Below are positions 43,382 to 61,955 of a DNA stretch of 64,000 bases, piece after piece; position 1 is the first letter of the stretch; each line of letters opens with the position of its first letter. The position numbers and the translations under genes are program-made. The notes below the pieces were generated by a model that was not told the origin of the DNA, did no database searches, and saw only the letters and a program-made list of their open reading frames with translations. The DNA comes from an uncultured Chloroflexia bacterium. GTDB taxonomy: Bacteria; Chloroflexota; Anaerolineae; CG2-30-64-16. The stretch is taken from contig CAVZDU010000009.1 of the NCBI GenBank assembly GCA_963774265.1, forward strand, positions 1-64,000, in the 5' to 3' direction.

Positions 43382-45127
43382 CTAACACCCCGGCGGCGGC
43401 GTCACGCTGGCCGGGCAGGCCCCCGTCCCCACCGGGTACGGCACGCTCATGCCGGCATCGTAGGACAGGATGATCAACGCGTCCGTGGAGTTGACAGACC
43501 CGTCTGCGTTCGCATCTCCGCAGTTCATCGGACAGAAGGCTGAGGTGTCCATGTCCGCATCGGCCGACAGGACGATCAGCGCATCGGTCGAGTTCGCAGC
43601 ACCATCGCCATTCACATCCCCCAGGGCCGGCGCACTGGCATTGGGTTCGATCGTGTACGAGTGAGAAACCCCCGTGGTATTGGATCTCACATATTCGACC
43701 GTCGCAAAGTTCGGGGCAACCTCAACGCGCAGATGGCCTGCGTTGGGCAGGACTTGGAGCGCATACGTCCCATTAGTCCCGGTGTAATAGCTACTGAACC
43801 CGGAACCGCTCATGCTGGGCGAGGGGAGTTCCTGGTAGACCACGCCGTCCCGCACTTCGTAGGCGTACACGTGATCGTGGCCGTGAAAAAAGGCGCTGAC
43901 GCCGTTGGCCACCATCAGTTGGTGAATCGGAACCCCTCCCCATCCGGGCCGTTCTGTATCGAACCCCCAGGTCGTGCCGTTGATGCTGTAGCCGCCCCAC
44001 TCGAACATGTGCGCCGGCGCAGCGCCGCCCCGGACGTAGTCTTCCGCGCCCCCCAGCCCATGATGGGCAAAGACGAACTTGAACCTGGCGTCACTGTTCT
44101 CCAAAGTCTGCTTGAACCAGTTGAACTGCGCCTGGCCCAGGGTCCAGTCCCACCGGTCACCGTAGACGGTTTCATCGCTCAGCTCTCCACCCGCAGTTCC
44201 GGCAAAGGGCTTGATCAGCGTGTACTGGTAGGGATCGATGAAGACAAAGAGCGCATCGCCCCACTCCCAGGCAAAATAGTCCTCACGCAGATGGTCGCCG
44301 CTGATCCCGGTGAGAGAGGCATCGGGATTTCCGGAGTAGAAGCTGTCCGGGATCGGATTGGGATAGTACCGCTTGCGGGCATTGATGCTCAGCAGGGCGA
44401 TGCTGTTGGTGTCATCCAGGTTCCAGCCCTCTTCGTTCTCGTGGTTTCCGGCAGCCAGGAAGATGGCCGCCGAATGACTGACTCCGCTCATCCACTGGCG
44501 CTGGGCCAGGTAGCGCTGGTTGGCTGCCGAGGAAGTCGTCACTCCGTCCGTCCAGGCGGTGTCGCCCAGGTCGAAATGGAAATCGGGCTGATCGGCGCTC
44601 ACGTTGGCCAGGGCCTGCTGATACAAACTGACAGTCCCTCCACCGCCGCTCATGTGCGCGTCCGAAGCGATCGTGAAGGTGAAGGTGCTGCCGCGCGCCC
44701 TCTGCGTGTGAAACGAATGCTGCGGCCGCGCGACCCAGCTATCTCCGGCTGTGCGGTATTGCATCCGGTAGAAGTACCTGGTATCCGGAGCAAGGTTGCT
44801 GAGGGTCACGTTGGCGGGCTCACCGGCGGGGGCCGTCGTGGAGCTGGTCTGCTCCGTATAGATCTCCGACGATGTGCCATATTCGTAGTACAGCTCGATT
44901 TCCGCGTCCGGCACCACATTGATCGTGACCGAGGTGTCGGTCGGCCGGCTGAGCAGCTCCTCGCCCGTGAAGGTGATCTCCGCGGCAGCCTTGATGCCGG
45001 TTGCCGATCCTCCAACCAACGATAGGAGGATGAGCAGGAAACTGAAGCGCCTCACAGCCCTGGCGGCTTGACCACGTGAGGAACAATAGCCCCGACTATT
45101 GCCGGGCAAGAACGGATAAACTGACAT
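43382..45127 (-). CDS. Secreted calcineurin-like metallophosphoesterase (PAP-type FN3 N-domain) + C-terminal dockerin [gene A]
   Basis: Signal peptide; SDAH, DLGD, GNHE, HGHDH; GDVNGDGAANSTDAL...GDANADGSVNSTDAL. Confidence 0.88.
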   Translation of the reverse strand: MSVYPFLPGNSRGYCSSRGQAARAVRRFSFLLILLSLVGGSATGIKAAAEITFTGEELLSRPTDTSVTINVVPDAEIELYYEYGTSSEIYTEQTSSTTAPAGEPANVTLSNLAPDTRYFYRMQYRTAGDSWVARPQHSFHTQRARGSTFTFTIASDAHMSGGGGTVSLYQQALANVSADQPDFHFDLGDTAWTDGVTTSSAANQRYLAQRQWMSGVSHSAAIFLAAGNHENEEGWNLDDTNSIALLSINARKRYYPNPIPDSFYSGNPDASLTGISGDHLREDYFAWEWGDALFVFIDPYQYTLIKPFAGTAGGELSDETVYGDRWDWTLGQAQFNWFKQTLENSDARFKFVFAHHGLGGAEDYVRGGAAPAHMFEWGGYSINGTTWGFDTERPGWGGVPIHQLMVANGVSAFFHGHDHVYAYEVRDGVVYQELPSPSMSGSGFSSYYTGTNGTYALQVLPNAGHLRVEVAPNFATVEYVRSNTTGVSHSYTIEPNASAPALGDVNGDGAANSTDALIVLSADADMDTSAFCPMNCGDANADGSVNSTDALIILSYDAGMSVPYPVGTGACPASVTPPPGC

Positions 45128-45193
45128 CGTGCCCTCCTGAGGATTACTTCATTGGATGGTCAGGCTTGCCGCAAGCATCGCTTCGCAACAGTA

Positions 45194-45233
45194 GATGGTC
45201 AGGGTGCGGCGGACCGGACACACCCTGACCATC
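45194..45233. other. 13-bp intergenic stem-loop after gene B
   Basis: gatggtcagggtg...caccctgaccatc; no U-tract on the minus strand. Confidence 0.7.
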
Positions 45234-45279
45234 CGTGGCCATGACAAACGCCGAAGGACTCGCAATGGCATCGATTTTG

Positions 45280-48009
45280 TTATTTCAGCTCTTGGGCACG
45301 ATCACTGCGTGCCCACCAAGTGAGGAGACTCCCCGCTACCGAGCATCCCGGCGGCTGCTCCGTCAAGCTGGCCGGACACGCACCGGTCCCCACCGGGAAC
45401 GGCACGCTCATGAGTGCGTCGTAGGACAGGATGATCAAAGCATCCGTGGAATTGACCAGCCCGTCCGCGTTCGCATCCCCGCAGTTCATCGGACAGAACG
45501 CCGCGGTGTCCATGTCCGCATCCGCGGACAGCACGATCAACGCATCCGTCGAGTTCGCCAGCACATCCCCATTCACATCCCCCAGCACTCCCCCCGCACT
45601 CACCACCACCTGCCCGTCCGTGATCATTAACTGCGGCAGCAGGTTGGCGAAGGTCGTGGCCGCCGCCATCACCGTGTACCCCAGGTCCAGCCCGCTCGTC
45701 CCCGCAGCGATGGCGTTGAAGGTGACCTGGAAGACCACGGTGTTGCCGGTCGCGCCGGTAGCGTTGGCCCCATTGAACGAGAGCGAGCCGCTGCCGGTCT
45801 GCCCGGTGTTCACCGCACCCGTGAAGCCCCCCAGCAGGTCGGAGTGGCTGGCATATTGCAGCACCGCCGGGTCCCACGCCAGCGACCCCGTGAAGCTCCC
45901 CAGCTTGTCATTGGGCGCCACAGCCCCCGTCATGTCGATGTTGACGCTCACCACCACCTGCCCGCCCGCGGCCACCGTCCCCGCGGACGGCGTCGCCGCC
46001 GACGTGATGGCGCCAACCTCCACAAAGTTGGCGGTCACGGTCTTATCGGCATTCATTGTGACCGAGCAGCTGGTGCCGCTGCTGCTGTTGCAGCCGCTCC
46101 AGGAACTGAACGCGTAGCCGGTCAGCGGAGTCGCCGTCACGGGGACCACCGTCCCGTAGGCATAGGTGTGCACGCCCACCGCCGGATTGGTCGTCCCCGC
46201 GCCGCTCGGGTTCACCGCAATGGTCAGATCGTGGGTGACCGTGGCAAAGTGTGCGGTGACGCTCCGGTCCTCGTCCATCGTCACCAAGCAGGCGCCGCTG
46301 CCGGTGCAGTCGCCGCTCCAGTGGTCAAACGTGTGCCCGGGGTTCGCCGTCGCCGTCACGCTGACGCTCTGGCCCTGGGGATATGTATGGGTCCCCGCCG
46401 ACGGGCTAATCGTGCCACCCCCGGCCGGGTCGACCGCGGTCGTCAGCACCTGCGTCGGGCCGCTGATGTACGGATCAATCGTGTACGACAGCGAAAAGTT
46501 GGATGGAGTGCACGATCCCGTTGTGGACCTGACATATTCGACGGTCGCCAGATCCGACGCGATCGTGATCTTCAGGTGGCCCGAGTTGGGGCAAATGGCA
46601 ATCGTCTCATAGTCCGTGTAGGTACCCACGGTGTAGATGCCGCCGAATACGCCGCCGCCCATGCTGGGCGAGGGGACTTCCTGGTAGACGATGCCGTCCC
46701 GCTTCTCATAGACGTACCCGTGATCGTGCCCGTGGAAGTAGCCGCTGACGTGGTTGTCCAGCATCAACTGGTGGATCGGCACCGGAAAGTCCTCTGCAGT
46801 GCGGTTGTCCGCAAAGCCCTCGGTGCCGTCAAAGTTCTTTCCCCCCCACTCGAAATACCCGGCTGCCTCGGCGCCGCCGCGCACGTACCCTGCTCCACCG
46901 CTGACACTATTATCCGGAATCCCGCCTACCATCTGATGGGAGAACATGAACTTGTACCTGGCAGTGCTGTTCTCCAGAGTCTGCTTCAGCCAGGCGTACT
47001 GCTCGGCGCCCAGCGTCCAGAGCCACTGGTCGGCAACGACCGTTTCGTCGCTCTCTTCGTTGGCGATGGCGGTATAGGGCATGGTCATGGTGTACTGGAA
47101 CGGGTCGATGACCACGAACAGCGCATCGCCCCATTCCCAGGCGTAATAGTCCTCGCGGTACTCGTCACCGTAAGTCGCTTCGTCAATCGCAGCCAAGGGA
47201 TCCGTGTTCGCCGAGTAGAACCCGTCGTTGATCGGAGTGGGGTAGAACGCCTTGCGCGCCTGGATGCTGAGCAAGGCACGGCTGGGAGTATCATCCAGGT
47301 TCCAGCCCTCTTCTTCCTCGTGATTGCCCGACGACAGAAAGATCGGAACCGAATGGCCGATGCGGTCAAAGTACGTTGGCTCGCGGAAATTCAGATACCT
47401 GGTATTGACCGCACTCTGGGTCTCTGACGACGCGTTGTCCACCATGAAGGTGTCGCCCAGGTCGACAGCAAAGTCAGGCAGTTCACCGAGGATGTTGTTC
47501 ATCGTCGTTGACCCGGCGTTGCCATGCGCGTCGGAGGTGACGGTGAAGACAAACGGGCTGCCCGCAGCGCGCTGCGTCCAGAACGAGTGCTCCGTCCGCA
47601 CCACCCAGTCGTCCATGGCCTCTCCAGGAGCATGGTAGCGCAGGCGGTAAAAGTACTGGGTGTTGGCCGTCAGCCCGCTCATGGTGATCTCGTGCGGCTG
47701 GCCGCCGGTGGCCGTGACGTTGGGCGTCTGCAAAGTATAAGAAGGTGCTGACGCAGGCCGGTACTGGTAGTGATACTCGATCGTCGACACGGGAACGATG
47801 TTGATCGTCACCGCCGCGTCGGTCGGCTTGCCGAGGAGCTCCTCCGCGGTGAAGGTGATCGTCGTGGCGGCCTGCACAGAGAGGATGGATCCCCCCACCG
47901 ACGACAAGACCAGAATCAGGAGAATGAGGACTCTCCCAAGCGTCGTCGGCCGAATACCAGAAACGCTCTTGTTCCGGATCATGTTGAAAAATAGCTTCTT
48001 TGCGGACAC
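45280..48009 (-). CDS. Secreted metallophosphoesterase + 2 InlB-B-like repeats + cohesin + dockerin [gene B]
   Basis: GGAGG-GTG start; SDAH/DLGD/GNHE/HGHDH; cohesin-like ~45600-46010 (LGSFTGSLAWDPAVLQY...SFNGAN...FQVTF); dockerin ~45410-45582. Confidence 0.87.
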   Translation of the reverse strand: MSAKKLFFNMIRNKSVSGIRPTTLGRVLILLILVLSSVGGSILSVQAATTITFTAEELLGKPTDAAVTINIVPVSTIEYHYQYRPASAPSYTLQTPNVTATGGQPHEITMSGLTANTQYFYRLRYHAPGEAMDDWVVRTEHSFWTQRAAGSPFVFTVTSDAHGNAGSTTMNNILGELPDFAVDLGDTFMVDNASSETQSAVNTRYLNFREPTYFDRIGHSVPIFLSSGNHEEEEGWNLDDTPSRALLSIQARKAFYPTPINDGFYSANTDPLAAIDEATYGDEYREDYYAWEWGDALFVVIDPFQYTMTMPYTAIANEESDETVVADQWLWTLGAEQYAWLKQTLENSTARYKFMFSHQMVGGIPDNSVSGGAGYVRGGAEAAGYFEWGGKNFDGTEGFADNRTAEDFPVPIHQLMLDNHVSGYFHGHDHGYVYEKRDGIVYQEVPSPSMGGGVFGGIYTVGTYTDYETIAICPNSGHLKITIASDLATVEYVRSTTGSCTPSNFSLSYTIDPYISGPTQVLTTAVDPAGGGTISPSAGTHTYPQGQSVSVTATANPGHTFDHWSGDCTGSGACLVTMDEDRSVTAHFATVTHDLTIAVNPSGAGTTNPAVGVHTYAYGTVVPVTATPLTGYAFSSWSGCNSSSGTSCSVTMNADKTVTANFVEVGAITSAATPSAGTVAAGGQVVVSVNIDMTGAVAPNDKLGSFTGSLAWDPAVLQYASHSDLLGGFTGAVNTGQTGSGSLSFNGANATGATGNTVVFQVTFNAIAAGTSGLDLGYTVMAAATTFANLLPQLMITDGQVVVSAGGVLGDVNGDVLANSTDALIVLSADADMDTAAFCPMNCGDANADGLVNSTDALIILSYDALMSVPFPVGTGACPASLTEQPPGCSVAGSLLTWWARSDRAQELK

Positions 48010-48109
48010 GGTGTCCTCCACTGGTAAGATGATGTCGCCTCTCCCGGGTTGGGTCCAGCGATCGACGAAGCAGCAGGTTCACAGGATGGCTCTGCGCCCA
48101 CCCCCGGCG

Positions 48110-48658
48110 CTATATGTTCCTGACGATCATCGGGAGATAGATCGTCGTACCCACGACAACCTGCCCATCCCTGACCGTGAGAACTGGCAGCAGGCTCGCA
48201 AACGTCGTCGCGGCAGCCATGGTCGAGTAGCCCAGATTGAGGGGGCTGGTTCCGGCTCCCACCACGTCGAAGGTGATGGCGAGAACGGTGATATTGCCGG
48301 TGACCCCGGTTGCATTTGCCCCATTGAAGACAAGATGTCCGGGCGAGGGATTGACCACACCGGTGAAACCGGCCAGGATCCCCGAATGGCTGCTGTACTT
48401 GAGTACGGCAGTATTCCAATCCAGGGTGCCGGTGAACGATCCCAGTTTGTTATCGGGTGTATTGACGCCGGAGACGTCGATGTTGATGCTGACCACAATC
48501 TGTTGGCCGACGCTCGGCGCAGCATTTGAAGCCGCAGCCGTTGATGTCGCAACGCCGCTGACCGCGAAAGCCGGAGCACCTCCGCTCATCACGCCAGCGA
48601 GCACCAGAACGACAGCCGTCAGCAGGCGCCAACAAAGCGGGATACATGAAGATGCCAT
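48110..48658 (-). CDS. Single-cohesin mini-scaffoldin with C-terminal YLP motif [gene C]
   Basis: Signal peptide (...PAFA), one cohesin-like domain, ends TTIYLPMIVRNI. Confidence 0.82.
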   Translation of the reverse strand: MASSCIPLCWRLLTAVVLVLAGVMSGGAPAFAVSGVATSTAAASNAAPSVGQQIVVSINIDVSGVNTPDNKLGSFTGTLDWNTAVLKYSSHSGILAGFTGVVNPSPGHLVFNGANATGVTGNITVLAITFDVVGAGTSPLNLGYSTMAAATTFASLLPVLTVRDGQVVVGTTIYLPMIVRNI

Positions 48659-48748
48659 TCGTTAAGCTTCTCTCTTCTCAGAAGACTTGAGGATGCTTCC
48701 AGCACAGGGAAGCTTACGTCTTCCGTGTCGATCCGCGGCAATCAGCAA

Positions 48749-48785: not shown

Positions 48786-48791
48786 CCGACG

Positions 48792-51700
48792 CTACTGATT
48801 CTTGCTGATTAACGGTAAGTACAGGTAGTACGTCCGTACACTGAAATGGGCGGTGACGGTCTTGTTTGCGTCCATGGTGACCGAACAAGAACCGGCGCCG
48901 GTGCAGGCCCCACTCCAGGAGTCGAACTTGTACCCGGCCGCGGGGGTCGCCGTGACCGCGACGACGGCGCCTGACGTATAGGTGTGGACGCCCACCGCAG
49001 GATTCGTGGTGCCACTTCCTAGCGGGTCGACGGCGATGGTCAGGCTAAAGATCTGGACGTAGTTGACCGTGGCAGTGCGAGCGGCGGCAGGCATGGTGAC
49101 CGTGTTGGTGGTCGCCGTGCTGGCGTTGTTGTCCGTGCCGCTCCAGCTGCCCACAGTCCAGCCTGCGCCCGGCGTAGCGGTAAGGCTGACCACCGTGCCT
49201 GCCAGGTACTGCCCAGGAGCGCAGCCGGTCGAGTTGGCCGGGCTGGGTGCCGGGTCAGTGCCAGTGCCGGTGTGGGTCAGCGTCAGCGCGTAGCAGGTCG
49301 GCGGGATTTCGATGTAGTTGACTGTGACAGTCCGCACCGCTGCCGGCATGGTGACTTGGTTGGTAGTCGCCGCGCTGCCGTCGTTGTCGGTGCCGATCCA
49401 GCTACCCACGGTCCAGCCCGAGCCAGGCGTGGCGGTGAGGGTGATGACCGCGGCGGCCACGTACTGCCCGGAAGTGCAGCCGGTCGAGTTGGCCGGGCTA
49501 GCCACCGGGTCGGTGCCGTTGCCCGTGTGGATCCTGGTCAGCGCATAGCAGGTCGGCTGGATTTCGGTGTAGGTGACGCTCGCGGCGTGCGCCGCAGCCG
49601 GCATGGTCACCTGGTTAGTGGTCGAGGTGCTGGCATCGTCGTCGGTGCCGGTCCAGCTGCCCACCTTCCAGCCTGAGCCGGGTGCGGCCGTGAGGCTGAT
49701 GACCGCGCCCGCCACGTACTGCCCGGCAGAGCAGCCGGTCGAGTTCGTCGGGCTGGCTGCCGGATCGCTGCCCGTGCCCGTGTGGGTTAGCGTCAGCGCA
49801 TAGCAGACGGGCGGGATTTCGACGTAATTAACCGTGACCGTCTGCGGCCAATCGGGCATTACGACCGTGTTGGTGGTGGACGTGCTGGTATCGTCGTTGG
49901 TGCCAAGCCAGCTGCCCACGGTCCAGCCTGAGTCAGGGGCAGCGGTGAGCGTGATGACCTCGTCCGCCACATAGAGTCCAACGGCGCAGCCGGTCGAGCG
50001 GATCGGGCTGGCCACCGGGTTGGAGCCGGCGCCCGTGTGCGTCCTCACCAACCAATTGCACGCCGGTTGGATTTCAGTATAGGCGACGCTCGCGGCGTGT
50101 GCCGCAGCCGGCATGGTCACCTGGTTGGTGGTCGAGGTGCTGGCATCGTTGTCGGTGCCGGTCCAGCTGCCCACGGTCCAGCCGGAGGCAGGCGCGGCCG
50201 TGAGGCTGATCACCGCGCCCGCCGCGTACTGCCCAGCCGCACAGCCGGTCGAGTTCGCCGGGCTGGCTGTCGGGTCGGACCCGGTGCCCGTGTGGGTCAG
50301 CGTCAGCGCGTAGCAGGTCGCGGTCCACTGCCGCGTACAGCGTGATGTCTGCCGCAAACGAATAGGTCGCCCCGTTCGTATACGCCGTGCCCCCGCCGCC
50401 GGACGCCGTGTTCCAGCCGCCGAACGTGTAGCCCGCGCGTGAACGTGTTGAGCTTCAGCGCCGTCGGCACGCTGGCCGTCTGCGCCGTCATCGTGCCCGT
50501 CCCACCGTTGGCGTTGAACGTCACCGTGTGGTTGGCCGCGGTCGCAGTGACCGAATCGTCGGTCACCGTCACGCCCGGCAGCATGTTACAGATGCTTACC
50601 GCTGCCGCCATGGCCGTGTAGTTCAGGTCCAGCGCACTCGTCCCCGCTGCCACCACATTGAACGTGATGGCAGTGACGGTCACGTCCCCCGAACCACTCG
50701 CATTCGCCCCGTTGAACGTGATGCTCCCCGTCCCCGCATTGGCCGTGTTGACGTTGCCCGTGAAGCCGCTCGGCAGATTCGTGTTGCTCACGTACGTCAG
50801 CACCGCCGGGTTCCACGCCAGCGAGCCCGTGAAGCTCCCCAGCAAGACACCGGTCGGCACATCGATGGCGATCGTCGCCACGATCTGCTGGCCCACCCCC
50901 GGCGTGTCGTTCGATGCACTCACCGACGACGCCGCTCCACCGCAGGACGTGGATGCCCACTGCGCGTACAACGTGATGTCCGCCGCAAACGAGTAGACCT
51001 GGCCGTCGGTGTAGGCCGTCCCCGAACCGTTGGACGCCGTGTTCCACCCGCTGAACGTGTACCCCGTCCGCGTGCAACGTGTTTGCCTTCAGCGCCGTCG
51101 GCACCGCGGCGACCTGCGCCGTCATCGTGCCCGTCCCACCGTTCGCATTGAACGTCACCGTGTGGCTGACCCCTGTCGCAGTGACCGAATCGTCGGTCAC
51201 CGTCACGCCCGGCAGCATGTTACAGATGCTTACCGCTGCCGCCATGGCCGTGTAGTTCAGGTCCAGCGCACTCGTCCCCGCTGCCACCACATTGAACGTG
51301 ATGGCAGTGACGGTCACGTCCCCCGAACCACTCGCATTCGCCCCGTTGAACGTGATGCTCCCCGTCCCCGCATTGGCCGTGTTGATGACGCCCGTGAAGC
51401 CGCTCGGCAGAGTCGTGTTGCTCACGTACGTCAGCACCGCCGGGTTCCAGGTCAGCGAGCCCGTGAAGCTCCCCAGCAAGACACCGGTCGGCACATCGAT
51501 GGCGATCGTCGCCACGATCTGCTGGCCCACCGCCGGCGCGTCGTTCGATGCACTCACCGACGACGCCGCTCCACCGCAGGTCGCTTCGGCAAAGTTCGCC
51601 GTGACGCTCTTCGCCGCATCCATCGTCACCGCGCACGTCCCCGTCCCGCTGCACCCCGCACCGCTCCAGCCCGTAAACGTCGACCCCGCCGAAGCTGCGG

Positions 51701-53763
51701 CCGTCAGCGTCACCGACTGGTTGTAGTTGTAGGCCTCCGAGCAGTCTGCTCCGCAGCTGATGCCGGCCGGCGCACTCGTCACCGTCCCGCTCCCTGTGCC
51801 GGTCTTACTCACCGTCAGCGTGTACGTGTTCAGCGTGAAGTTCGCCGTGACGCTCTTCGCCGCATCCATCGTCACCGCGCACGTCCCCGTCCCGCTGCAC
51901 CCCGCACCGCTCCAGCCCGTAAACGTCGACCCCGCCGAAGCTGCGGCCGTCAGCGTCACCGACGAGCCGGCGTTGAAGCTCGCCGAGCACGTCGAGCCAC
52001 AGTTGATCCCCGCCGGTGCACTCGTCACCGTCCCGCTGCCCGTGCCGGTCTTGCTCACCGTCAGCGTGTACGTCGGCGCATTCACCGTCACCGAACTATC
52101 GTAGATCGTCAGAATGGGCAGCAGGCTCGGGAAGGGAGAGCCAGCCGCCGCCATGGCCGAGTAGTCCAGATCCAAGGCGCTAGTCCCTACTGCCGCCGCG
52201 GTGAAAGTCACCACCAGCACGGTCACGTCGCCGGTTGCACCGTCGGGATTGCTCCCGTTGAACGTGATGGTCCCGCTCCCGGCATTGGTGATATTCACGA
52301 TACCGGAAAAGCCCGCCGGCGGGGCGCCGGAGTAGCTTACGTACGTCAGGACAGCAGGATCCCGAATCTAGCGTGCCGCTGTAACTGCCCAGCTCGGCGC
52401 CGGAGGCGTTGGTCATGTCGATGTCAATGGTGACCACAACCTGTTGGCCGACCGTCCGTACACTGAAGTCAGGCGATGCCGACGACACCACGCTGTTGCT
52501 CGATGCGGCAAAGTTCGCCGTGACGCTCTTCGCCGCATCCATCGTCACCGCGCACGTCCCCGTCCCGCTGCACCCCGCACCGCTCCAGCCCGTAAACGTC
52601 GACCCCGCCGAAGCCGCGGCCGTCAGCGTCACCGACTGGTTGTAGTTGTAGGCCTCCGAGCAGTCTGCTCCGCAGCTGATGCCGGCCGGCGCACTCGTCA
52701 CCGTCCCGCTCCCTGTGCCGGTCTTGCTCACCGTCAGTGTGTAGGTGTTCAGCGTGAAGTTCGCCGTGACGCTCTTCGCCGCATCCATCGTCACCGTGCA
52801 CGTCCCCGTCCCGCTGCACCCCGCACCGCTCCAGCCCGTAAACGTCGACCCCGCCGAAGCTGCGGCCGTCAGCGTCACCGACTGGTTGTAGTTGTAGGCC
52901 TCCGAGCAGTCTGCTCCGCAGCTGATGCCGGCCGGCGCACTCGTCACCGTCCCGCTCCCTGTGCCGGTCTTACTCACCGTCAGCGTGTACGTGTTCAGCG
53001 TGAAGTTCGCCGTGACGCTCTTCGCCGCATCCATCGTCACCGCGCACGTCCCCGTCCCGCTGCACCCCGCACCGCTCCAGCCCGTAAACGTCGACCCCGC
53101 CGAAGCTGCGGCCGTCAGCGTCACCGACGAGCCGGCGTTGAAGCTCGCCGAGCACGTCGAGCCACAGTTGATCCCCGCCGGTGCACTCGTCACCGTCCCG
53201 CTGCCCGTGCCGGTCTTGCTCACCGTCAGGGTGTACGTCGACGCGGCCACAGTGACTGAACCATCCGTGACCGTAGTGATGTTGGCCATCAAGCTCTGCA
53301 GGTTAATCGCGGTAGCCATAGCGGAAAAGTTCAGGTCGAGGGTACTTGTCCCCGTTCCTATCACCAGGAAGGTAACGCGGTAGACCTCCACCACATCCTG
53401 CATGCCATCGACGTTGGTCCCGTTGATGGTCAGCAGCCCATTGTCAACCTGGCTGGTATTGGTAGACCCGCTGAAACCATTCTGGTATTGGCGGCTTTGA
53501 TAATCCAGGATGGCTGCGTCCCACTGCAACGTGGAGCTAAAACTCCCCAACAGGTCGTCGGGATACTGCATGTTGGTGACATCAATCGTGACGCTTACGG
53601 TGATCGTGTCACCGTTGTTCGGCGCCGCGTTCGAAGGCGTTGCCGCCGCGGTCACACTGCCCGTTGCAGCAAATGCCGGCACAGCTCCCAGCATCGCGGC
53701 GTTGAACGCCAGGGCGATCACCAGCAACAGACGCCAGTAAAACAAAGTGTGTTTGGTTTTCAT
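48792..53763 (-). CDS. Scaffoldin-like protein (~1,650 aa): 4 cohesins, 13 InlB-B-like spacer repeats, C-terminal YLP motif [gene D]; frameshifts ~52366, ~51075, ~50435, ~50332
   Basis: Four ORF pieces join into one protein; cohesins ~53250-53660, ~52085-52495, ~51180-51575, ~50545-50945; ends YYLYLPLISKNQ. Confidence 0.82.
49040..50320 (-). repeat. Five ~255-bp coding repeats (85 aa, Cys-containing beta modules)
   Basis: CYALTLTHTGTG.DP.ASP.NSTGC..GQY.AG.VI.LTA...W.VGSW.GTD. Confidence 0.85.
51590..53240 (-). repeat. Five 246-bp coding repeats (82 aa divergent InlB-B), in blocks of 3 and 2 around cohesin 2
   Basis: YTLTVSKTGTGSGTVTSAPAGI.CG..CS...FTGWSGAGCSGTGTC.VTMDAAKSVTANF. Confidence 0.85.
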
Positions 53764-53812: not shown

Positions 53813-55574
53813 TCACGGGCATCCTGCTGGCTTGGTGACGGTGGCTGGGCACGCGCCGGTCTCAACCGGGAACGCCACGCTCATGCCCACGTCGAAGGAC
53901 AGGATGATCAGCGCGTCGGTAGAATTCACGTACCCGTCCGCATTCACATCGCCACAGTTCATGGGACAGTACTGCGTGCTGTCAATGCCTACGTCGGCCG
54001 AGAGGACGATCAGGGCATCGGTCGAGTTCGCCTCGCCGTCGTCATTGACGTCACCCAGGACCGAGACAGGCAGTTCCCCGCCCTCGATGGTGAAGCTGTG
54101 CACGGCCGTGGCCTGGTCCATGCGGAAGTACTGGACCGTCGTCTCATCCGGTGCCACGGTCACGAGCACGTGGCCGCAGTTGGGCTGAGTGGCGATGGTG
54201 TACCCGCTGCCGGCGGTGTACATGTTGAACCCGCTCCCGTTGTTGCCCCAGCCGGCGACGGGCATGGACAGGTAGACCACGTTATCCTTCTTCTCGTAGG
54301 CGTACTGGTGATCGTGGCCATGGAACACGGCGTCGACGCCGTAATTGTTAAAAATCGTGTGCAGCGGCTCGCTACCCCACCCGGCGCGCCTGGTGGCCCA
54401 GGAATAGGTGGTGCCATCCTCGTCGTAGCCGCCCATCTCCACCAGGTTCACGTGATTGGCGCCGGCATGGCCATAGTCCTCCTGGTTGTTTAGGCTGGCG
54501 TCGGTCGGCATCTGGTGGGTAAAGACGAACTTGTACGTGGCGTTGCTGTTCTGCAGGGTCGTCTTGACCCAGTTGAACTGCGTCTGCCCCAGGGTCCAGG
54601 ACCAGGCATCGCCGGTTCCCGTCCCGTTCGTCTCGCCGCCGCCCGGGTCGTTGACGTACGGCTTGGACGTCGTGTACCAGTAGGGGTCGATCACCATGAA
54701 CAGCGCGTCGCCCCAGGTCCAGGCGTAGTAGCTTTCCTTGTACTGATCGCCCCCCAGCAAGGGCTCAAGCGCCGTGTCGCCGGTGTAGAACCCGCCTGGC
54801 TGCGGCATCGGGAAGTACTTTTTCTGGGCTTTGGTACCGATGATGGGCAGGCTGTCCACGGGATCGCCGGCATCGTTCGGCGTGCCAGCGACGTGCCAGT
54901 TTTCCTTCTGCTCGTGGTTCCCGGGGATTAGGAACACCGGCGCCGAGTGGCTGAACAGGTTAGAAGTACTGGTACTGGTCGATGTAGGCCTGGTTGGCTC
55001 CCGCCTGATCGCTGGGATCCACATTGGTGTACATGGCCACGGTGTCGCCGAGGTCAAAGTGGAATTCCGGGTTATGAGCGGCGACCTCCTGGGCTACATT
55101 CGTCCATGTGGCCGACTGGCCCATCAGAATGCCCACGTGCGAGTCGGAGGTGAGGGTGAAGCTGAAGGTGCTGCCCGCCGCACGGGCCGTCTGGAAGGAG
55201 CGTTCCGTCCGCGTCTCCCAGGTGGAGCCACCATCGGTGCTGTATTGCATCCGGTAGTAGTACTTGGTGTTGGTGCTCAGGCTACCGAGGACTACGGTCG
55301 TGGGCGCATTGGCCGCCGCGGCCGTGTTGCCGGTAGTGGTGTATGGTCCCCCGGGCGCGGTGCCGTACTGGAAGCGCACGGTGATCGCCGTCTGGGGGAC
55401 GAAGGTGACGGAGATTGAATTGGCCGTCGGCCGGGTGAGCAGCTCCGTTCCGGTGAAGGTGATCGGCGCCGCATGAACAGGTGGTGCTGGCACGACCACC
55501 AGCGCAGAGAGCAGGACCAGGAGCGCCGTGAACCTCCCGATCGTGGCCAGATGAATCCATGATCTGTGTTGCAT
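53813..55574 (-). CDS. Secreted metallophosphoesterase + dockerin [gene E]; frameshift ~54962
   Basis: Signal peptide; SDSH, DLGD, GNHE, HGHDH; GDVNDDGEANSTDAL...GDVNADGYVNSTDAL. Confidence 0.86.
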
Positions 55575-55682: not shown

Positions 55683-58073
55683 TCAAGGACCACACCCCGG
55701 CGGCGGCGTTACGGTGGCCGGGCACGCGGCCGTCCCCACCGGGAACTGCACACTCATCAGTGCATCGTAGGACAGGATGATCAGCGCATCGGTGGAATTG
55801 ACCAGCCCGTCCCCGTTCGCATCGCCGCAGTTCATCGGACAGAACGCCGCCGTGTCCATGTCGGCATCGGCCGACAGCACGATCAGCGCATCGGTCGAGT
55901 TTGCCGCGCCGTCGCCGTTGACATCCCCCAGCACCCTGTCCGCACTCACCACCACCTGGCCGTCGGTGATCGCCAACTGCGGCAGCAGATTCGCAAAGGT
56001 CGTCGCGGCGGCCATGACCGTATAGCCCAAGTCCAACACACTCGTGCCTGCACCCACCGCATTGAACGTGACCTGGTACACCACGGTGTTGCCGGTCGCG
56101 CCGCTTGAATTCGCCCCGTTGAACGACAGCGAGCCGCTTCCTGCGTTCACCGCACCGGTGAACCCACCCAGTGGACCCGAGTTGCTGACGTAGCTGAGCA
56201 CCGCCGGGTCCCACGCCAGCGACCCCGTGAAACTGCCCAGCTTCGCGCCGGATGGCGTCGCACCGCTCATGTCGATGTTGATGCTCACCACCACCTGCCC
56301 GCCCACGGCCACCGTCCCCGCAGACGGCGTCGCCGCCGACGTGATGGTCCCCACTTCCACGAAGTTGGCCGTCACCGTCTTGGCGGAGGTCATGGTGACC
56401 GAGCACGTGCTGCCGCTGCAATCGCCGCTCCACGAGCTAAAGGCGTAGCCGGTGTTGGGGGTGGCCGTGACATTGACCGCCGTGTCCTCGGGATAGCTGT
56501 GCACGCCTGCCGCCGGGTTGGTCGTGGCGGCACCCACCGGATTCACCGCGACGGTCAGATCGTAGACCGGCGGCGGCAAGGTGAAGGAGTAGAGGATCTC
56601 CCCATCGTTCCCGGATAGTAAGGACCGCACATAATCCACCTGGACCTGGTCCGCAGAGACATCCACGCGGATATGGCCGCAGGCGAGCTGGATGTTGTCC
56701 CCCGTGGGGTAACCGCCGCCGTCGTTGCGATAGTCGGTGGTGCTGGTGATGTCGTCCGGTTTCGGCACCTCAAGATACACGATGCCGTCGAGCTCTTCCT
56801 TAGAGAAAAAGTGGTCATGCCCATGGAAGAGGATGTCGACGTCGTTGGCCACCAGCAGGTCATGAATCGGCATTTCCCAGCCCGGCCGTTCCGTGGCAAA
56901 GCCCTCCGTGCCATCAGCGTTCTTGCCGCCCCACTCAAAGAGCTCGGCTGCAGCAATCCCACCCCGGCCATAGGGAATCACCCCGCCGGTCAGGTGGTGA
57001 GTAAATACGAATTTCCAGGTGGCATCGCTGTCTTCCAGCGTGGCCTTCAGCCAGTCGTACTGCTGCTTGCCCAGGGTCCAGTCCCAGCGGTCACCCGACG
57101 CCTCGCCATCCGCCCCTTCCCCGCCATATCCCGCTCCATTATCATTGGGCCAGGTCATGGAGTAGTGGAACGGGTCCAGAACCACGAACAGCGCATCGCC
57201 CCATTCCCAGGCATAGTAATCCTCGTGCAGGTGATCGCCCTCGATGAGCGTGTTGCTGGTGTCGGTGTTGCCGGTGTAGAAATCGTCCGGGACCGGGTTG
57301 GGGATGTACAGCTTGCGCGCCTTGATGCCGCGGATGGCCAGCGAGCCTTCGGGCGGGGTGAACACGTCATCCCAGTTCCAGCCCTCTTCATTCTCATGGT
57401 TGCCGATGGCCAGGAAGAACGGGATTTCGGCGCCGATGATGTTCAGGGAGGCGGGCTGGCGCTGGACACGATATGCCGCATCGGCGTTCGCTTCCGTCAT
57501 CCCGTTGCCCAGGCCAGTGCCGTAGGGCGCTAGTGGGTCCATGGCGAAGGTATCGCCCAGGTCGATGTGAAAGTCGGGCGGCTCGGCCGCGATGTGGGTC
57601 AGGCTGCGCTGGTACAGATTCCTCTGCTCCGTCGTCTGCCCGCCGTACTGCCCCAGGTGCGAGTCGGAGATGATGGTAAAGGTGAAGGGGCTGCCCGGCG
57701 CGCGCTGGGTGTGGAACGAGTGCTGGCCGCCCCCCGTCCACGGGTCGCCGCTGGTGGCCCGGAAGCGCACCTGGTAGTAGTACTCGGTATCGGCCGTAAG
57801 CCCGTCGATCACCACTTCGACGGGCTCGTTCGCGGTGCACGCGGTGGCGGTTGTCTCGGAGCCGTAAGAGGGCGTGGCGCCATACTCGAGAGAAATCTGG
57901 CCGCTCTGGTCCGGGATCACGTTGGCGGTGACCGAGTGATCCGTAGGCCGGCCCAGCAGGATGCTGAAGTCGGCCACCGCCTGAGGGGCGGACACGGAGC
58001 CGCTCGCGTTCAACACGAACGCAAACAGCAGCACCAGGATCACCGGCAGCGTCAGAACTCGCCTGCGTCTCAT
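55683..58073 (-). CDS. Secreted metallophosphoesterase + InlB-B-like repeat + cohesin + dockerin [gene F]
   Basis: SDSH/DLGD/GNHE/HGHDH; cohesin ~55945-56345; dockerin ~55760-55928. Confidence 0.87.
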   Translation of the reverse strand: MRRRRVLTLPVILVLLFAFVLNASGSVSAPQAVADFSILLGRPTDHSVTANVIPDQSGQISLEYGATPSYGSETTATACTANEPVEVVIDGLTADTEYYYQVRFRATSGDPWTGGGQHSFHTQRAPGSPFTFTIISDSHLGQYGGQTTEQRNLYQRSLTHIAAEPPDFHIDLGDTFAMDPLAPYGTGLGNGMTEANADAAYRVQRQPASLNIIGAEIPFFLAIGNHENEEGWNWDDVFTPPEGSLAIRGIKARKLYIPNPVPDDFYTGNTDTSNTLIEGDHLHEDYYAWEWGDALFVVLDPFHYSMTWPNDNGAGYGGEGADGEASGDRWDWTLGKQQYDWLKATLEDSDATWKFVFTHHLTGGVIPYGRGGIAAAELFEWGGKNADGTEGFATERPGWEMPIHDLLVANDVDILFHGHDHFFSKEELDGIVYLEVPKPDDITSTTDYRNDGGGYPTGDNIQLACGHIRVDVSADQVQVDYVRSLLSGNDGEILYSFTLPPPVYDLTVAVNPVGAATTNPAAGVHSYPEDTAVNVTATPNTGYAFSSWSGDCSGSTCSVTMTSAKTVTANFVEVGTITSAATPSAGTVAVGGQVVVSINIDMSGATPSGAKLGSFTGSLAWDPAVLSYVSNSGPLGGFTGAVNAGSGSLSFNGANSSGATGNTVVYQVTFNAVGAGTSVLDLGYTVMAAATTFANLLPQLAITDGQVVVSADRVLGDVNGDGAANSTDALIVLSADADMDTAAFCPMNCGDANGDGLVNSTDALIILSYDALMSVQFPVGTAACPATVTPPPGCGP

Positions 58074-58103
58074 CGATCCTCTCCTTTACTCGTCCGTCCC
58101 TCA

Positions 58104-58132
58104 GGCGTGAGGCCGGTCCCCGGCCTCACGCC
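58104..58132. other. 13-bp intergenic stem-loop after gene G
   Basis: ggcgtgaggccgg-tcc-ccggcctcacgcc. Confidence 0.72.
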
Positions 58133-58157
58133 CTTCCATCAAACGAGATCCTGCAGA

Positions 58158-61100
58158 TCAGCGCGGCAGCATGCCGAACCACTTGCGGAGGCCTTCCGGC
58201 GCGCCGACGACGCATCCAGCCGGCTGAGCGGTCAAGTCAGGCTCCTCGACCGGCTCTCCCACCGGGAGCGCACCGACGCCGTAACCCACATCGTACGTCA
58301 GGATGATCAGGGCATCTGTCGAATTAGCCAGCCCATCGGCGTTCACGTCACCGTAATTCATGGGGCAGAAATCGGCGCTCGCAGCAGGCAGTCCGGCGTC
58401 GACGGTAAGGACGATAAGTGCATCGGTGGAGTCCACCGAGCCATCCAAGTTGACATCGCCCAGCAGGCGGAGGTAGTTCACACCCGCGGAATGCGCCTCG
58501 GCCGGCATGGTCAGGCTGTTCGTGGCCGCCGTGCTCTCGTCGTTAGCGGTGCCGTACCAGCTCGCGATCCCCCAGCCCGTGGCCGGGACCGCCCCGCTCA
58601 GGTTGATCAGCTCACCCGCGGCGAACTGGCCGGTTGGGCAACTGATCGAGTTGATCGCTTCGCCGGTCGGATCCGTCCCGCTGCCGGTGTGCCCCAGGGT
58701 CAGCTCGTAGCAGACCGCCGTCCACTGCGCATACAGCGTGACGTTGGCTGAGCCGATTACGAACGTATCGCCGGCATTGTAGCTGGTGCCCAAGCCGTCA
58801 GCCTGGGTGTTCCACCCCGCGAAGGTGTAGCCGGTCTTCACCAACGAGCCGGTGTTGCCCAGCACCGTCACCGTCGCACCGAAATTGTAGGGGCTCGCGG
58901 GGTCGGTCGGGGCTGTGCCGCCGGTGCTGCCGTTGCCAGCGTAGGTCACGGTGTAGCTGTTGATCGTCCACTTGGCGTACAGCGTCACGTTGGCTGCGCC
59001 GATCACGAACGTGTCGCCAGCATTGTAGCTGGTGCCCAAGCCGTCAGCCTGGGTGTTCCACCCCGCGAAGGTGTAGCCGGTCTTCACCAACGAGCCGGTG
59101 TTGCCCAGCACCGTCACCGTCGCACCGAAATTGTAGGGACTGGAGGGGTCAGTTGGGGCTGTGCCGCCGGTGCTGCCGTTGCCAGCGTAGGTCACGGTAT
59201 AGCTGTTGATCGTCCACTTGGCGTACAGCGTGACGTTGGCTGCGCCGATCACGAACGTGTCGCCAGCATTGTAGCTGGTGCCCAAGCCGTCAGCCTGGGT
59301 GTTCCACCCCGCGAAGGTGTAGCCGGTCTTCACCAACGAGCCGGTGTTGCCCAGCACCGTCACCGTCGCACCGAAATTGTAGGGGCTCGCGGGGTCGGTC
59401 GGGGCTGTGCCGCCGGTGCTGCCGTTGCCAGCGTAGGTCACGGTGTAGCTGTTGATCGTCCACTTGGCGTACAGCGTCACGTTGGCTGCGCCGATCACGA
59501 ACGTGTCGCCAGCATTGTAGCTGGTGCCCAAGCCGTCAGCCTGGGTGTTCCAGCCCGCGAAGGTGTAGCCGGTCTTCACCAACGAGCCGGTGTTGCCCAG
59601 CACCGTCACCGTCGCACCGAAATTGTAGGGGCTCGCGGGGTCGGTCGGGGCTGTGCCGCCGGTGCTGCCGTTGCCAGCGTAGGTCACGGTATAGCTGTTG
59701 ATCGTCCACTTGGCGTACAGCGTCACGTTGGCTGCGCCGATCACGAACGTGTCGCCAGCATTGTAGCTGGTGCCCAAGCCGTCAGCCTGGGTGTTCCAGC
59801 CCGCGAAGGTGTAGCCGGTCTTCACCAACGAGCCGGTGTTGCCCAGCACCGTCACGGTCGATCCAGAATTGTAGGGACTGGAGGGGTCAGTTGGGGCTGT
59901 GCCGCCGGTGCTGCCGTTGCCAGCGTAGGTGACGGTGAAGGTCGGACTGCTGGCGGTAGTAAAGGTCCACGTCGGACCCTGGATGCCGTAGAAGCCGTCG
60001 TTAACCGTCACATACCACTCATACTGCGTCGATGCCGTGAGACCCGGCCAGCTCATCGTCGCATTGGTGCCGCTGGCAACGGCGTAAGCCGTGCCCAGAT
60101 TCGTCCAGGATCCGGCTCCCACTGCCCGGCCGTAGAACGTGACATCGGTCGCGTTCCCATCCGCGTCGTTGACCGTCACTTCCAGTGTCGGCGAGGTGCT
60201 GACACCCGTCGTGCCGGAGGGCGTAGGAGACACCAGCGTTGGCTGGCTGGGCGCGGTGTTGTTGGCGAGGCAGTAGGTGACGCTCAGTACGGGAGGGGTC
60301 GTCCCTTCGCGTGAATCAAAGACCAGTGGGTCCGTTGTACCGGTCGTGTAATTCTGGATGGTCACGCCATTGTTGACCCCACCGGACACCCAGCGCTGCA
60401 CAACAGGTACACCGCCGTTGGCCACAGTGGTCAGGGGCACCGTTCTGCTGCCAGCGGGGGTAAGGTTGCTCGTCGATGCAGTCCACAGGTTTACGGTGGC
60501 GCGATCAATGGACCCGGTGGTGTTTTTCGCGCCACCCGCCGTGGTCCACGCGACGGGGGCGGGGTCATAGTTGGTCCAGGAGGCGCCCGTACCCGCGGCG
60601 CCATCGTTGGTGCCCTCCACCCAGGGTTTTGCCACGTCATACATGCTTGGAGCGTACAATGTGACAGGATCCGTGACGTTAAGTGTGATGCTGGCACTGC
60701 TAACGGCAGCGAACCACGGGATACTGCTCACGTTCCATTTCAACAACGCCCCTCGCTGGGTAGCGGTCGTTCTATCAACCTGAATCGTTGTGGCGGCGCC
60801 ATAGTTGTAGGTAGTAGCGCCGCTGGCAGCGTTCATGTAGGTATCCGCCGCCGCGTTCAGATGAACAGTATTTGAGCATGGTGCTGTCTCAGTAGGAGCA
60901 AAGTTGGCGGTTACGGACTTGTCCCCGTTCATCACGATCGTAACGGCGCCGCCGCCGGCGCTGACAAGGTCGCCGGCGTTCGCACCCACCCAACCGCTAA
61001 AGAGATAGCCGGAGCTAGGGATTGGCCTAAGCGTGACCGTCCTGCCGGCGCAGATGGAAGTCTCGACGGGGCTTTGCGTTACAGTACCGTGGGCATCGTG

Positions 61101-61955
61101 GCCGACCGTCAACGTGTGGTAGTTCGAACCCGCGCAGACCGGGTTAATTGCCGCCGCGACATCTACCCAGATGCCGGTTGGTGGTGTCGTTCCGCCCACC
61201 GTCCAACTCATCGTGACCGAGTTGGCTAAGTTGGCATCCTGGGTGCTGGCATAACCCCCCGCCTGTCCAGCCGCGAGATTCCATCCAGTCAACTGCGTAT
61301 TGCCGCCACTGGCAGTCAAGGTAGAGCCGCCACCAATGAACGCGTCGTCAAATACCAACTCGTCGCCGACGAGCCCATTCAAAGTCACACCCAAGGCGTT
61401 GCTTACGTTATCAGCGCCGTTGGTCGGCCCAATTGGATTCGTCTGGTCAACATTATAGAACCTGGCGATGCCGCCTATGACGCCGTTCGTCCCTGGGGAG
61501 GTCTTGAAGGTGACCGTTACATACCCAACTTGCCCATCCGTTGGTTCTGTCGTATACCAGATCGAGGCCCATCGAAGGAGCCAGGTATTGCTTCGCGATA
61601 TGGCCTGTTTCAAGTTTATGACCGGCCCTGAAGTGGGAGTGAATGTCACCCCGGTGATAGGTGCATCAGCCGTAGCGGGATTCCAGGACACGCCAACCAC
61701 CATCAACCTGTTTGGGTTTGAACTGATCGTGATAGTTCCTGTCCCGGAAGGGATCCTAAGAGTAGCAGAACTAGTGGTCGATGAGACAACAGTAGGAGCG
61801 CCGTCCAGTGTAACGGTGGTTGCCGCCGGCGCAAGGTCCGGCAGCGGCAACGCAGGCGCGGCGAGGACCGGCGCGGCGCTGCCCATGACCAGGGCGAAGA
61901 CGACCAAAAGGATCCAGAAGCCGGAAACCGGGTGGACACGCTGTGAGTGGTTCAT
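58158..61955 (-). CDS. Large secreted adhesin-like protein: beta-rich N-domain, DNRLRE-like domain, FN3-like domain, 5 InlB-B repeats, dockerin [gene G]
   Basis: Signal peptide; AADTYM...NYG...RGALLKWNVSSIP; GDVNLDGSVDSTDAL...GDVNADGLANSTDAL. Confidence 0.8.
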   Translation of the reverse strand: MNHSQRVHPVSGFWILLVVFALVMGSAAPVLAAPALPLPDLAPAATTVTLDGAPTVVSSTTSSATLRIPSGTGTITISSNPNRLMVVGVSWNPATADAPITGVTFTPTSGPVINLKQAISRSNTWLLRWASIWYTTEPTDGQVGYVTVTFKTSPGTNGVIGGIARFYNVDQTNPIGPTNGADNVSNALGVTLNGLVGDELVFDDAFIGGGSTLTASGGNTQLTGWNLAAGQAGGYASTQDANLANSVTMSWTVGGTTPPTGIWVDVAAAINPVCAGSNYHTLTVGHDAHGTVTQSPVETSICAGRTVTLRPIPSSGYLFSGWVGANAGDLVSAGGGAVTIVMNGDKSVTANFAPTETAPCSNTVHLNAAADTYMNAASGATTYNYGAATTIQVDRTTATQRGALLKWNVSSIPWFAAVSSASITLNVTDPVTLYAPSMYDVAKPWVEGTNDGAAGTGASWTNYDPAPVAWTTAGGAKNTTGSIDRATVNLWTASTSNLTPAGSRTVPLTTVANGGVPVVQRWVSGGVNNGVTIQNYTTGTTDPLVFDSREGTTPPVLSVTYCLANNTAPSQPTLVSPTPSGTTGVSTSPTLEVTVNDADGNATDVTFYGRAVGAGSWTNLGTAYAVASGTNATMSWPGLTASTQYEWYVTVNDGFYGIQGPTWTFTTASSPTFTVTYAGNGSTGGTAPTDPSSPYNSGSTVTVLGNTGSLVKTGYTFAGWNTQADGLGTSYNAGDTFVIGAANVTLYAKWTINSYTVTYAGNGSTGGTAPTDPASPYNFGATVTVLGNTGSLVKTGYTFAGWNTQADGLGTSYNAGDTFVIGAANVTLYAKWTINSYTVTYAGNGSTGGTAPTDPASPYNFGATVTVLGNTGSLVKTGYTFAGWNTQADGLGTSYNAGDTFVIGAANVTLYAKWTINSYTVTYAGNGSTGGTAPTDPSSPYNFGATVTVLGNTGSLVKTGYTFAGWNTQADGLGTSYNAGDTFVIGAANVTLYAKWTINSYTVTYAGNGSTGGTAPTDPASPYNFGATVTVLGNTGSLVKTGYTFAGWNTQADGLGTSYNAGDTFVIGSANVTLYAQWTAVCYELTLGHTGSGTDPTGEAINSISCPTGQFAAGELINLSGAVPATGWGIASWYGTANDESTAATNSLTMPAEAHSAGVNYLRLLGDVNLDGSVDSTDALIVLTVDAGLPAASADFCPMNYGDVNADGLANSTDALIILTYDVGYGVGALPVGEPVEEPDLTAQPAGCVVGAPEGLRKWFGMLPR
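58720..59940 (-). repeat. Five near-identical 246-bp coding tandem repeats (82-aa InlB-B/Flg_new-like)
   Basis: YTVTYAGNGSTGGTAPTDP...KTGYTFAGWNTQADGLGTSY...VTLYAKW. Confidence 0.92.

Follow-up and report, generated by a model that had tools for sequence, protein, structure and literature searches.

A cohesin–dockerin gene cluster with PhoD/purple-acid-phosphatase-like phosphoesterases as cargo in an uncultured Chloroflexota bacterium

Cohesin–dockerin complexes are a textbook form of extracellular enzyme organisation and have been studied almost solely for their part in plant-fibre breakdown. Peer et al. (2009) reportedly deal with non-cellulosomal cohesins and dockerins, and some enzymes of the amylosome of Ruminococcus bromii are said to bear both a cohesin and a dockerin. 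The amylosome is a cohesin–dockerin complex around another enzyme class (PMC4611034), and a genome-based hypothesis for freshwater Planctomycetes outlines a ‘planctosome’, a non-cellulosomal cohesin–dockerin machine with anchor, adaptor and hydrolase cargo (PMC6461901). Here, we examine a gene cluster in positions 1 to 64,000 of contig CAVZDU010000009.1 (assembly GCA_963774265.1), a stretch that we refer to in its full length as the window and that makes up the initial 64 kb of contig C9 in an uncultured Chloroflexia-labelled genome of 10 contigs and 5.5 Mb (completeness 84%, contamination 5.65%). At 43382-61955 on the minus strand, seven co-oriented genes encode five dockerins, seven cohesin modules and four metallophosphoesterases that resemble PhoD and purple acid phosphatases (PAPs), and we propose that a self-contained cohesin–dockerin assembly probably keeps several of these secreted enzymes together at or near the cell surface.

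For this proposal we computed domain content, cargo specialisation and conserved linkage; calcium-dependent binding, location, activity and substrate class are what we infer. Every long open reading frame (ORF) with a high G+C content at third codon positions in 43382-61955 lies on the minus strand, intergenic gaps are roughly 50-150 bases long, and gene letters A to G were assigned in coordinate order. The N-termini of all seven products are hydrophobic and, read by eye, signal-peptide-like, and a Pfam scan across 11 ORF pieces of the locus gave zero matches to glycoside hydrolase families. ORF coordinates, Pfam and our own module hidden Markov models (HMMs) bear out the inventory given in an initial annotation of this DNA, namely seven cohesins, five dockerins, four phosphoesterases and no glycoside hydrolase. 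Its count of seven genes stands if frame breaks are read through and falls for the sequence as assembled, in which D is interrupted four times and E once. The parts of the cluster are as follows.

A, 43382-45127, minus strand: 581 residues; signal-like N-terminus, PAP-type N-terminal domain, metallophosphoesterase, dockerin (43385-43630).
B, 45280-48021, minus strand: 913 residues; phosphoesterase, two Flg_new_2 repeats, cohesin (45592-46014), dockerin (45283-45591).
C, 48110-48658, minus strand: 182 residues; signal-like N-terminus, single cohesin (48143-48562), YLP-box tail (about 48119-48145).
D, about 48792-53763, minus strand: scaffoldin of roughly 1650 codons once the frames are joined, with many Flg_new_2/Flg_new repeats and a YLP-like tail (48795-48827).
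Cohesins of D, minus strand: four modules, at 53239-53664, about 52077-52494, 51168-51578 and 50534-50944.
Tandem arrays of D, minus strand: 49059-50320, 51592-52073 and 52511-53238.
E, 53813-55574, minus strand: phosphoesterase and dockerin (53816-54064), with one single-base frame break at about 54960-54965.
F, 55683-58073, minus strand: 796 residues; phosphoesterase, one Flg_new_2 repeat, cohesin (55938-56351), dockerin (55686-55937).
G, 58158-61955, minus strand: 1265 residues; GN domain (61119-61820), Flg_new_2 repeats, CBM96-like stretch (60666-60869).
Remaining parts of G, minus strand: five Flg_new repeats (array 58719-59937) and dockerin (58161-58469).

The seven cohesin modules, 137-142 residues long, form one repeat family in which the six intact ones are 43-59% identical to the module of C; the second cohesin of D is split by a frameshift precisely between profile positions 47 and 49 (pieces 3-47 and 49-141). 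An AlphaFold2 model of C’s module, computed from an alignment of 47 family members, reached a predicted local distance difference test (pLDDT) score of 97.9 and a predicted template modelling score of 0.90. Foldseek searches with this model against the PDB returned 104 matches at E ≤ 0.001, and those listed are all cohesins, of types I, II and III, headed by 4ums (E 4.4e-9). Template modelling (TM) scores were 0.78 against the non-cellulosomal Archaeoglobus fulgidus cohesin 2xdh and roughly 0.7-0.76 against the cellulosome cohesins 1aoh, 1ohz, 3ul4 and 4dh2. C’s module is thus clearly predicted to adopt the nine-stranded β-sandwich fold of cohesins, and the idea that these modules are cohesins came through the structural check unrefuted. 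Among 1.84 billion, 1041 representative clusters belong to the family at E ≤ 0.001, and the 158 that remain at E ≤ 1e-30 rule out a chance or low-complexity origin of the modules. The Pfam Cohesin profile (PF00963, length 139, gathering cut-off 24.1 bits) is passed by 14 of the best 150 family representatives; in one of them, P0069, the Pfam match (60-183) coincides with the module match (50-185).

Elsewhere in this genome, our own HMMs, run on six-frame ORFs, found one close copy of the cohesin on contig C7 and two divergent cohesin proteins on contig C6. The former (G000:C7:509230-510450; L072:4231-5451, minus strand) is a lone eighth cohesin of the same type as those of the locus (192 bits); its protein also has RCC1/Kelch-type repeats and, at the C-terminus, an unassigned domain. 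The latter belong to a second, divergent cohesin–dockerin cluster (G000:C6:19145-23391; L071:7146-11392, minus strand), where two adjoining proteins carry two cohesin-like HMM matches each (28.1 and 46 bits with Pfam Cohesin) and the protein beside them has a dockerin that scores 22.4 bits, just below the cut-off, and an internal YLP-like motif ahead of a proline-rich tail.

As first annotated, all five dockerins (in A, B, E, F and G) show paired calcium-loop motifs, each of 12 residues. Pfam Dockerin_1 (PF00404, cut-off 22.9 bits) is passed by A (32.6 bits), E (30.6), F (28.5) and G (25.8), and B stays below it at 17.5 bits; our own HMMs score B at 149.9 bits for the dockerin and 221.8 bits for the cohesin. 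In the model of A, helices span residues 513-523 and 547-557 of the protein, within the dockerin. Three dockerin proteins (A, E and G) are free of cohesins and the two proteins that hold the other five cohesins (C and D) are free of dockerins. In B and F, the dockerin sits directly behind the cohesin with almost no linker, an arrangement that extends to relatives, as the dockerin begins 0-6 residues past the cohesin end in 23 of the 28 that have a full dockerin (with envelopes overlapping by 2 in one). An enzyme with such a fused cassette could plug in and offer a new socket, so that the sockets of C and D would not be a ceiling on cargo number. A complex prediction for the cohesin of C with the dockerin of A, run without controls, scored 0.15 against a mark of 0.32.

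Dockerins of this family also share four conserved cysteines, two of them located between the calcium loops and the other two in a short C-terminal extension rich in proline (window 43385-43450, 45330-45400, 53816-53880 and 55686-55750, minus strand; tails also in L005, L006, L024, L026 and L060). These may form two disulfides, and we know of no such pattern in cellulosomal dockerins.

To census the cargo, HMMs built from the window’s dockerins and cohesins were run over all six-frame ORFs of the genome. Besides the five dockerins of the locus, this returned one on contig C6, such that four of the six dockerin ORFs are the phosphoesterases, with no recognised carbohydrate-active enzyme (CAZyme) among the six dockerin proteins. 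Pfam Dockerin_1 alone matches at three places in the genome, all within the HMM set, and a loose search pattern for paired loops points to one further possible dockerin-like pair, within an ORF of 2674 residues on contig C1. In a related genome of roughly 5.6 Mb (G001, which carries locus L006), all eight Pfam dockerin matches fall in four ORFs, each a phosphoesterase–dockerin gene, and the gene adjoining them in L006 encodes a 2432-residue protein with two cohesins. Dockerin cargo consisting mostly of CAZymes would have turned the locus into an ordinary cellulosome; with phosphoesterases in four of six cases here and four of four in the relative, this objection, raised in the initial annotation, fails.

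The enzymes themselves pass the Pfam cut-off for Metallophos (PF00149, 21.5 bits) in all four cases (A 35.4, B 21.9, E 28.7, F 30.6 bits) and that for PhoD (27 bits) in B (31.1), E (30.3) and F (35.9), with A just below it at 26.7; Pur_ac_phosph_N reaches 20-26 bits, below its cut-off of 30. The two pieces of E match successive stretches of our own phosphoesterase HMM. Of the domains that the initial annotation named for an HMM scan, Metallophos passes in all four enzymes and Dockerin_1 in every dockerin protein but B, with Cohesin and Pur_ac_phosph_N below their cut-offs. Metallophosphoesterases bind their metals through the motifs DxH, GD, GNH[ED], H and GHxH, which are readable in all four window paralogues; across 50 homologues, H158, D189, N228, H229, H355, H417 and H419 are invariant and D156 nearly so (numbering of A). 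A PDB sequence search with the catalytic part of A gave nothing meaningful. An AlphaFold2 model of the whole protein (pLDDT 82.8) matched Bacillus subtilis PhoD best (2yeq, E 9e-21), followed by wheat purple acid phytase, lupin PPD1 and the kidney-bean, sweet-potato and mammalian PAPs, with GpdQ and Rv0805 ranking lower. Compared with PhoD (2yeq) and the plant PAPs and phytases (6giz, 3zk4, 1kbp), the window enzymes share the two-domain fold, a fibronectin-like N-domain and a metallophosphoesterase core, as well as the metal-ligand motifs, but are 12-16% identical to them and carry an added dockerin, a module that the literature searched does not report on known PhoD or PAP enzymes.

A fifth PAP-like paralogue in this genome (G000:C7:248930-251146, minus strand) has no dockerin and contains one in-frame TGA at a non-conserved position, which could be a sequencing error, a pseudogene mutation or recoding; by eye, its C-terminal part looks like the unassigned domain at the end of the C7 cohesin protein.

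Relatives of A are abundant: of 8000 candidates scored, at least 4770 database clusters reach E ≤ 1e-10, and our own HMM finds a dockerin of this type on 84 of the best 120 A homologues. To evaluate linkage, we used contigs from one genome per species, in which 241 stretches held a relative of A, and kept 69 loci with flanks of 10 kb. These come from Chloroflexota (Anaerolineae, Dehalococcoidia, Caldilineaceae and metagenome-assembled genomes (MAGs) labelled ‘Chloroflexia’), from Pirellulales, Draconibacterium and other Bacteroidales, Actinomycetota, Verrucomicrobiota and Polyangiaceae, and from Ignavibacteria, Calditrichota, Acidobacteriota and Bathyarchaeia. A cohesin gene lies within the flank in 14 of the 20 loci that have a phosphoesterase–dockerin ORF, compared to one of the 49 that do not, the fragmented L037. 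The 14 linked loci (eleven from Chloroflexota, three from Bacteroidota) represent fewer independent cases, as two of them (L010 and L056) overlap on one contig and another two (L002 and L057) share one MAG. Their common gene order is a run of phosphoesterase–dockerin genes and then a cohesin scaffold; a dockerin protein that is not an enzyme often stands between the two. The genes flanking related loci are not conserved. The synteny anticipated across Chloroflexota MAGs is thus found, and it recurs in Bacteroidota. The placement of the window in Chloroflexota also remains the best one, given that the nearest loci are from Chloroflexota MAGs (64-67% identity) and that C ends in a YLP-box tail.

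Protein G, the one non-enzymatic dockerin protein of the cluster, has no recognised catalytic family; a CBM96 match at 27.2 bits against a Pfam cut-off of 26 provides a family name and nothing further. What we call the GN domain is a well-conserved stretch of about 225 residues (61119-61820) at the start of the mature protein, with no Pfam relative and no meaningful match in a PDB profile search; a search of the ESM Atlas with residues 33-280 of G returned only unnamed clusters (0.91). Over 24 loci, copies are 36-49% identical to that of G. In total, 27 of the 69 phosphoesterase loci have the GN domain (55 copies), as do 15 of 150 cohesin-family representatives; of 39 ORFs that carry it, 21 also have a phosphoesterase domain and nine a cohesin; G is the sole GN-domain protein in this genome. 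The GN domain is thus fused to the enzyme elsewhere and placed here on a separate dockerin protein, a Rosetta-stone-style argument for joint action of G with the enzymes. Across many phyla, three or more copies may occur in giant proteins adjoining PAP-like phosphoesterase genes (alignment A4; for example, L065:5616-6287 and L045:12836-13510), and the cultured Pelolinea submarina (L045) is among the carriers, although its locus has neither a cohesin nor a dockerin within 10 kb.

Neither C nor D has an SLH domain, a sortase signal or a membrane helix in the Pfam scan, and the two share a short C-terminal tail of hydrophobic Y-L-P type, that of D recognised by eye. The NCBIfam catalogue holds two models of the YLP-box, a putative Chloroflexota sorting motif: NF053834 (ultrashort_CTERM, cut-off 10 bits), which the tail of C passes with 11.3 bits, and NF050076 (sort_motif_YLP, cut-off 15 bits), which scores 15.5 bits on the last 30 residues of C and 12.4 on the whole protein. 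The tail of D matches no NCBIfam YLP model, and the ‘Flexitail’ and choice-of-anchor families of NCBIfam have no match in the eight locus proteins scanned. The best argument for a role of the YLP-box in anchoring or sorting comes from short relatives of C in other phyla, which carry a type IX secretion system sorting domain, SLH repeats, PEP-CTERM or IPTL-CTERM in the very C-terminal place of the YLP-box. By this analogy, C is a candidate anchor protein. The claim that scaffold, anchor and cargo are encoded in one locus stands insofar as D can be identified as a scaffold, C as a small protein with a single cohesin, and A, B, E, F and G as cargo; it is weakened by the breaks in D and E as assembled.

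A loose YLP pattern occurs 120 times in the six-frame ORFs of this genome, 23 of them within 12 residues of the stop (counted without a shuffled control). ORFs with such terminal tails often have 800-1400 residues (for example, C2:343090-347340, C5:370813-374505 and C6:111204-114542). In two MAGs labelled ‘Chloroflexia’, giant phosphoesterase and cohesin proteins end not in a YLP-box but in W-x-K/Q-V ... H-T/N-W-x-V-x-Y (L005:664-5484, L005:6705-9893, L006:6588-9917, L070:79-7374 and L070:7389-14480).

Putting these parts together, the four sockets of D and the one of C would receive the dockerin plugs of A, B, E, F and G in a calcium-dependent manner, and B and F would return a socket for the one they occupy, so that the assembly could branch or extend. 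The YLP-box may keep C and D on the cell, and G may target the assembly to its substrate. Extracellular organic phosphorus would then be the target of the enzymes, which would free phosphate from it or cleave its phosphodiester bonds; the target would probably come in polymeric or particle-bound form, where holding several enzymes near the cell would pay off.

Several observations weigh against this assembly model. At the sequence level, none of the window’s modules passes the Pfam Cohesin cut-off, with one of the six scanned reaching 17.6 bits (profile positions 7-136), and a PDB sequence search with a profile of the six modules gave zero matches. The PhoD equivalog of NCBIfam (NF058638) scores 18.2 bits against a cut-off of 1000. 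In true PAPs, the GDxxY motif supplies the tyrosinate ligand of Fe(III); the window copies read GDTAW, GDTFM, GDTVA and GDTFA at this second motif, with no such tyrosine. Given the lack of GDxxY and the distance from the PhoD equivalog cut-off, we call the enzymes PhoD/PAP-like only and their chemistry unsettled; PAP proper is ruled out, both by the missing tyrosine and by a Pur_ac_phosph_N score below its cut-off. No pst or pho gene lies beside the window locus, and the 44 ORFs scanned around nine conserved loci include none either, which leaves a link to phosphate starvation unsupported. The YLP-box is itself a putative sorting motif. Finally, D has four single-base frame breaks, near 52364, 51075, 50434 and 50331, E has one near 54960-54965, and directly downstream of the cluster (42382-42997, minus strand) a gene resembling class II fructose-bisphosphate aldolase is broken, its pieces matching profile positions 2-99 and 198-277 of 277 in different frames with the middle absent.

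If the breaks in D and E were genuine, the scaffold D would end after one and a half cohesins, and the system would be real as a type but decaying in this organism, where the complex would not be made; we consider this unlikely, though it is the strongest competitor of the assembly model. That five single-base indels fall within roughly 5 kb of D and E speaks for decay, as do the missing middle of the neighbouring aldolase-like gene, the in-frame TGA of the C7 phosphoesterase paralogue and the fact that four long tRNA-synthetase genes elsewhere in the genome are intact, which shows that errors are not everywhere. However, each break is a one-base insertion or deletion after which the protein sequence resumes seamlessly in the new frame, and each corrected frame continues over hundreds of well-conserved codons to either side, with no in-frame stops. 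Three of the four breaks in D lie in or beside duplicated cohesin/Flg_new units and tandem arrays, near-identical repeats at which consensus errors are expected, and A, B, F and G, which together amount to 3555 codons, are intact. Four public metagenome runs contain short fragments of relatives, which leave the E break almost uncovered. On balance, sequencing consensus errors are more likely than real decay, about twice so, as the origin of the breaks in D and E.

The other alternatives accept the proteins as encoded and differ in what they would do. The assembly might act on the cell’s own envelope or matrix (phosphodiester-linked wall or sheath polymers, or extracellular DNA (eDNA) in biofilms) rather than scavenge phosphorus, with cohesin–dockerin pairs as a general surface architecture. 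This would fit the absence of Pho-regulon genes beside the locus and nine relatives, the richness of the scaffold and G in adhesin-type repeats (Flg_new, Flg_new_2 and the CBM96-like stretch), and the nearest structure, as PhoD has phosphodiesterase as well as monoesterase activity; yet the data do not separate self from foreign substrates, and the four to six paralogous enzymes per locus fit substrate diversity equally well or better, so that we rate an envelope role as rather unlikely, slightly below decay. Least probable of all is that no intermolecular complex forms, with the fused cohesin stabilising or masking its own dockerin and the other cohesins being immunoglobulin-like spacers. The dockerin placed directly behind the cohesin in 23 of 28 relatives, a pair evidently inherited as one unit, would suit such a role in cis, but the dockerins of A, E and G come without a cohesin and the five cohesins of C and D without a dockerin, in one cluster and recurrently in other genomes, and on geometric grounds a linker of 0-6 residues makes docking on the cohesin face in cis unlikely. 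The surface assembly of several phosphoesterases hence remains the explanation that we favour. A bolder version of it can be put forward tentatively, as a possibility somewhat stronger than any of the alternatives and clearly weaker than the assembly itself: a widespread extracellular ‘phosphatosome’, present at least in Chloroflexota and Bacteroidota, that would process polymeric or particle-bound organic phosphorus (eDNA, teichoic-type polymers, phosphoglycans, phytate) and extend itself through cohesin–dockerin cassettes, with GN as a novel module for substrate recognition or catalysis, always working alongside these enzymes.

The genes around the cluster are unrelated to it: on one side, a VTT-domain protein and a metallo-β-lactamase-fold protein are encoded next to the broken aldolase-like gene, and the opposite side encodes ribosomal protein S2. 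Two of the nine related loci scanned have a sulfatase gene less than 10 kb from the conserved cluster (L010:3080-4519 and L060:13491-14963), and one sulfatase-bearing locus has a further metallophosphoesterase and a 5'-nucleotidase. In public runs, parts of the stretch appear only in contigs of wetland, digester and sludge metagenomes, with a small share each, and no RNA run is listed; record titles and run labels place related sequences in wetlands, sediments and digesters.

If the proposal is correct, the cohesin–dockerin principle would also apply to the cycling of phosphorus in wetlands, sediments and digesters, and a function would be at hand for a very large family of ‘hypothetical’ dockerin-tagged metallophosphoesterases (at least 4770 clusters at the threshold given above). 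It would also provide orthogonal cohesin–dockerin pairs for protein engineering and a test bed for the YLP-box tail and the GN domain.

How, then, does the locus compare with the systems described so far? The literature searched, which mostly excludes subscription journals, holds no link of dockerins to metallophosphoesterase, calcineurin-like, purple acid phosphatase or PhoD enzymes; papers found on cohesins and dockerins in Chloroflexi/Anaerolineae are, to judge by titles and abstract openings, CAZyme surveys alone, and the string ‘phosphat’ is nowhere in the text of a 2025 cellulosome review. The statement in the initial annotation that no system like this has been described is nevertheless too strong, since non-cellulosomal cohesin–dockerin assemblies are an accepted idea (PMC6461901). 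The planctosome is likewise a proposal from genomes, and differs in having peptidases as cargo and a lamin-tail domain as anchor (PMC6461901). The amylosome differs in its GH13 amylase cargo, its carbohydrate substrate and its Firmicutes host (PMC4611034).

The closest likeness is to the cellulosome of Clostridium (Acetivibrio) thermocellum (CipA, OlpA/OlpC), with which the locus shares a multi-cohesin, non-catalytic scaffold next to a small single-cohesin protein, enzymes that end in a duplicated calcium-loop dockerin, and parts that are encoded together. D, with four cohesins and no catalytic family, qualifies as a scaffoldin, although its frame is broken as assembled. Unlike in the cellulosome, the scaffold of the locus has no CBM3-type module and ends in a YLP-box tail, with no SLH or sortase anchor found, two of its enzymes have a cohesin fused to the dockerin, and no hierarchy of type I and type II pairs is evident, as all cohesins of the window and four of its five dockerins look to be of one sequence type; the divergent members are the dockerin of G and the first cohesin of D. 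Its enzymes are phosphoesterases and not glycoside hydrolases. Thus, the cluster would work like a cellulosome or an amylosome but fails the defining cargo test of both.

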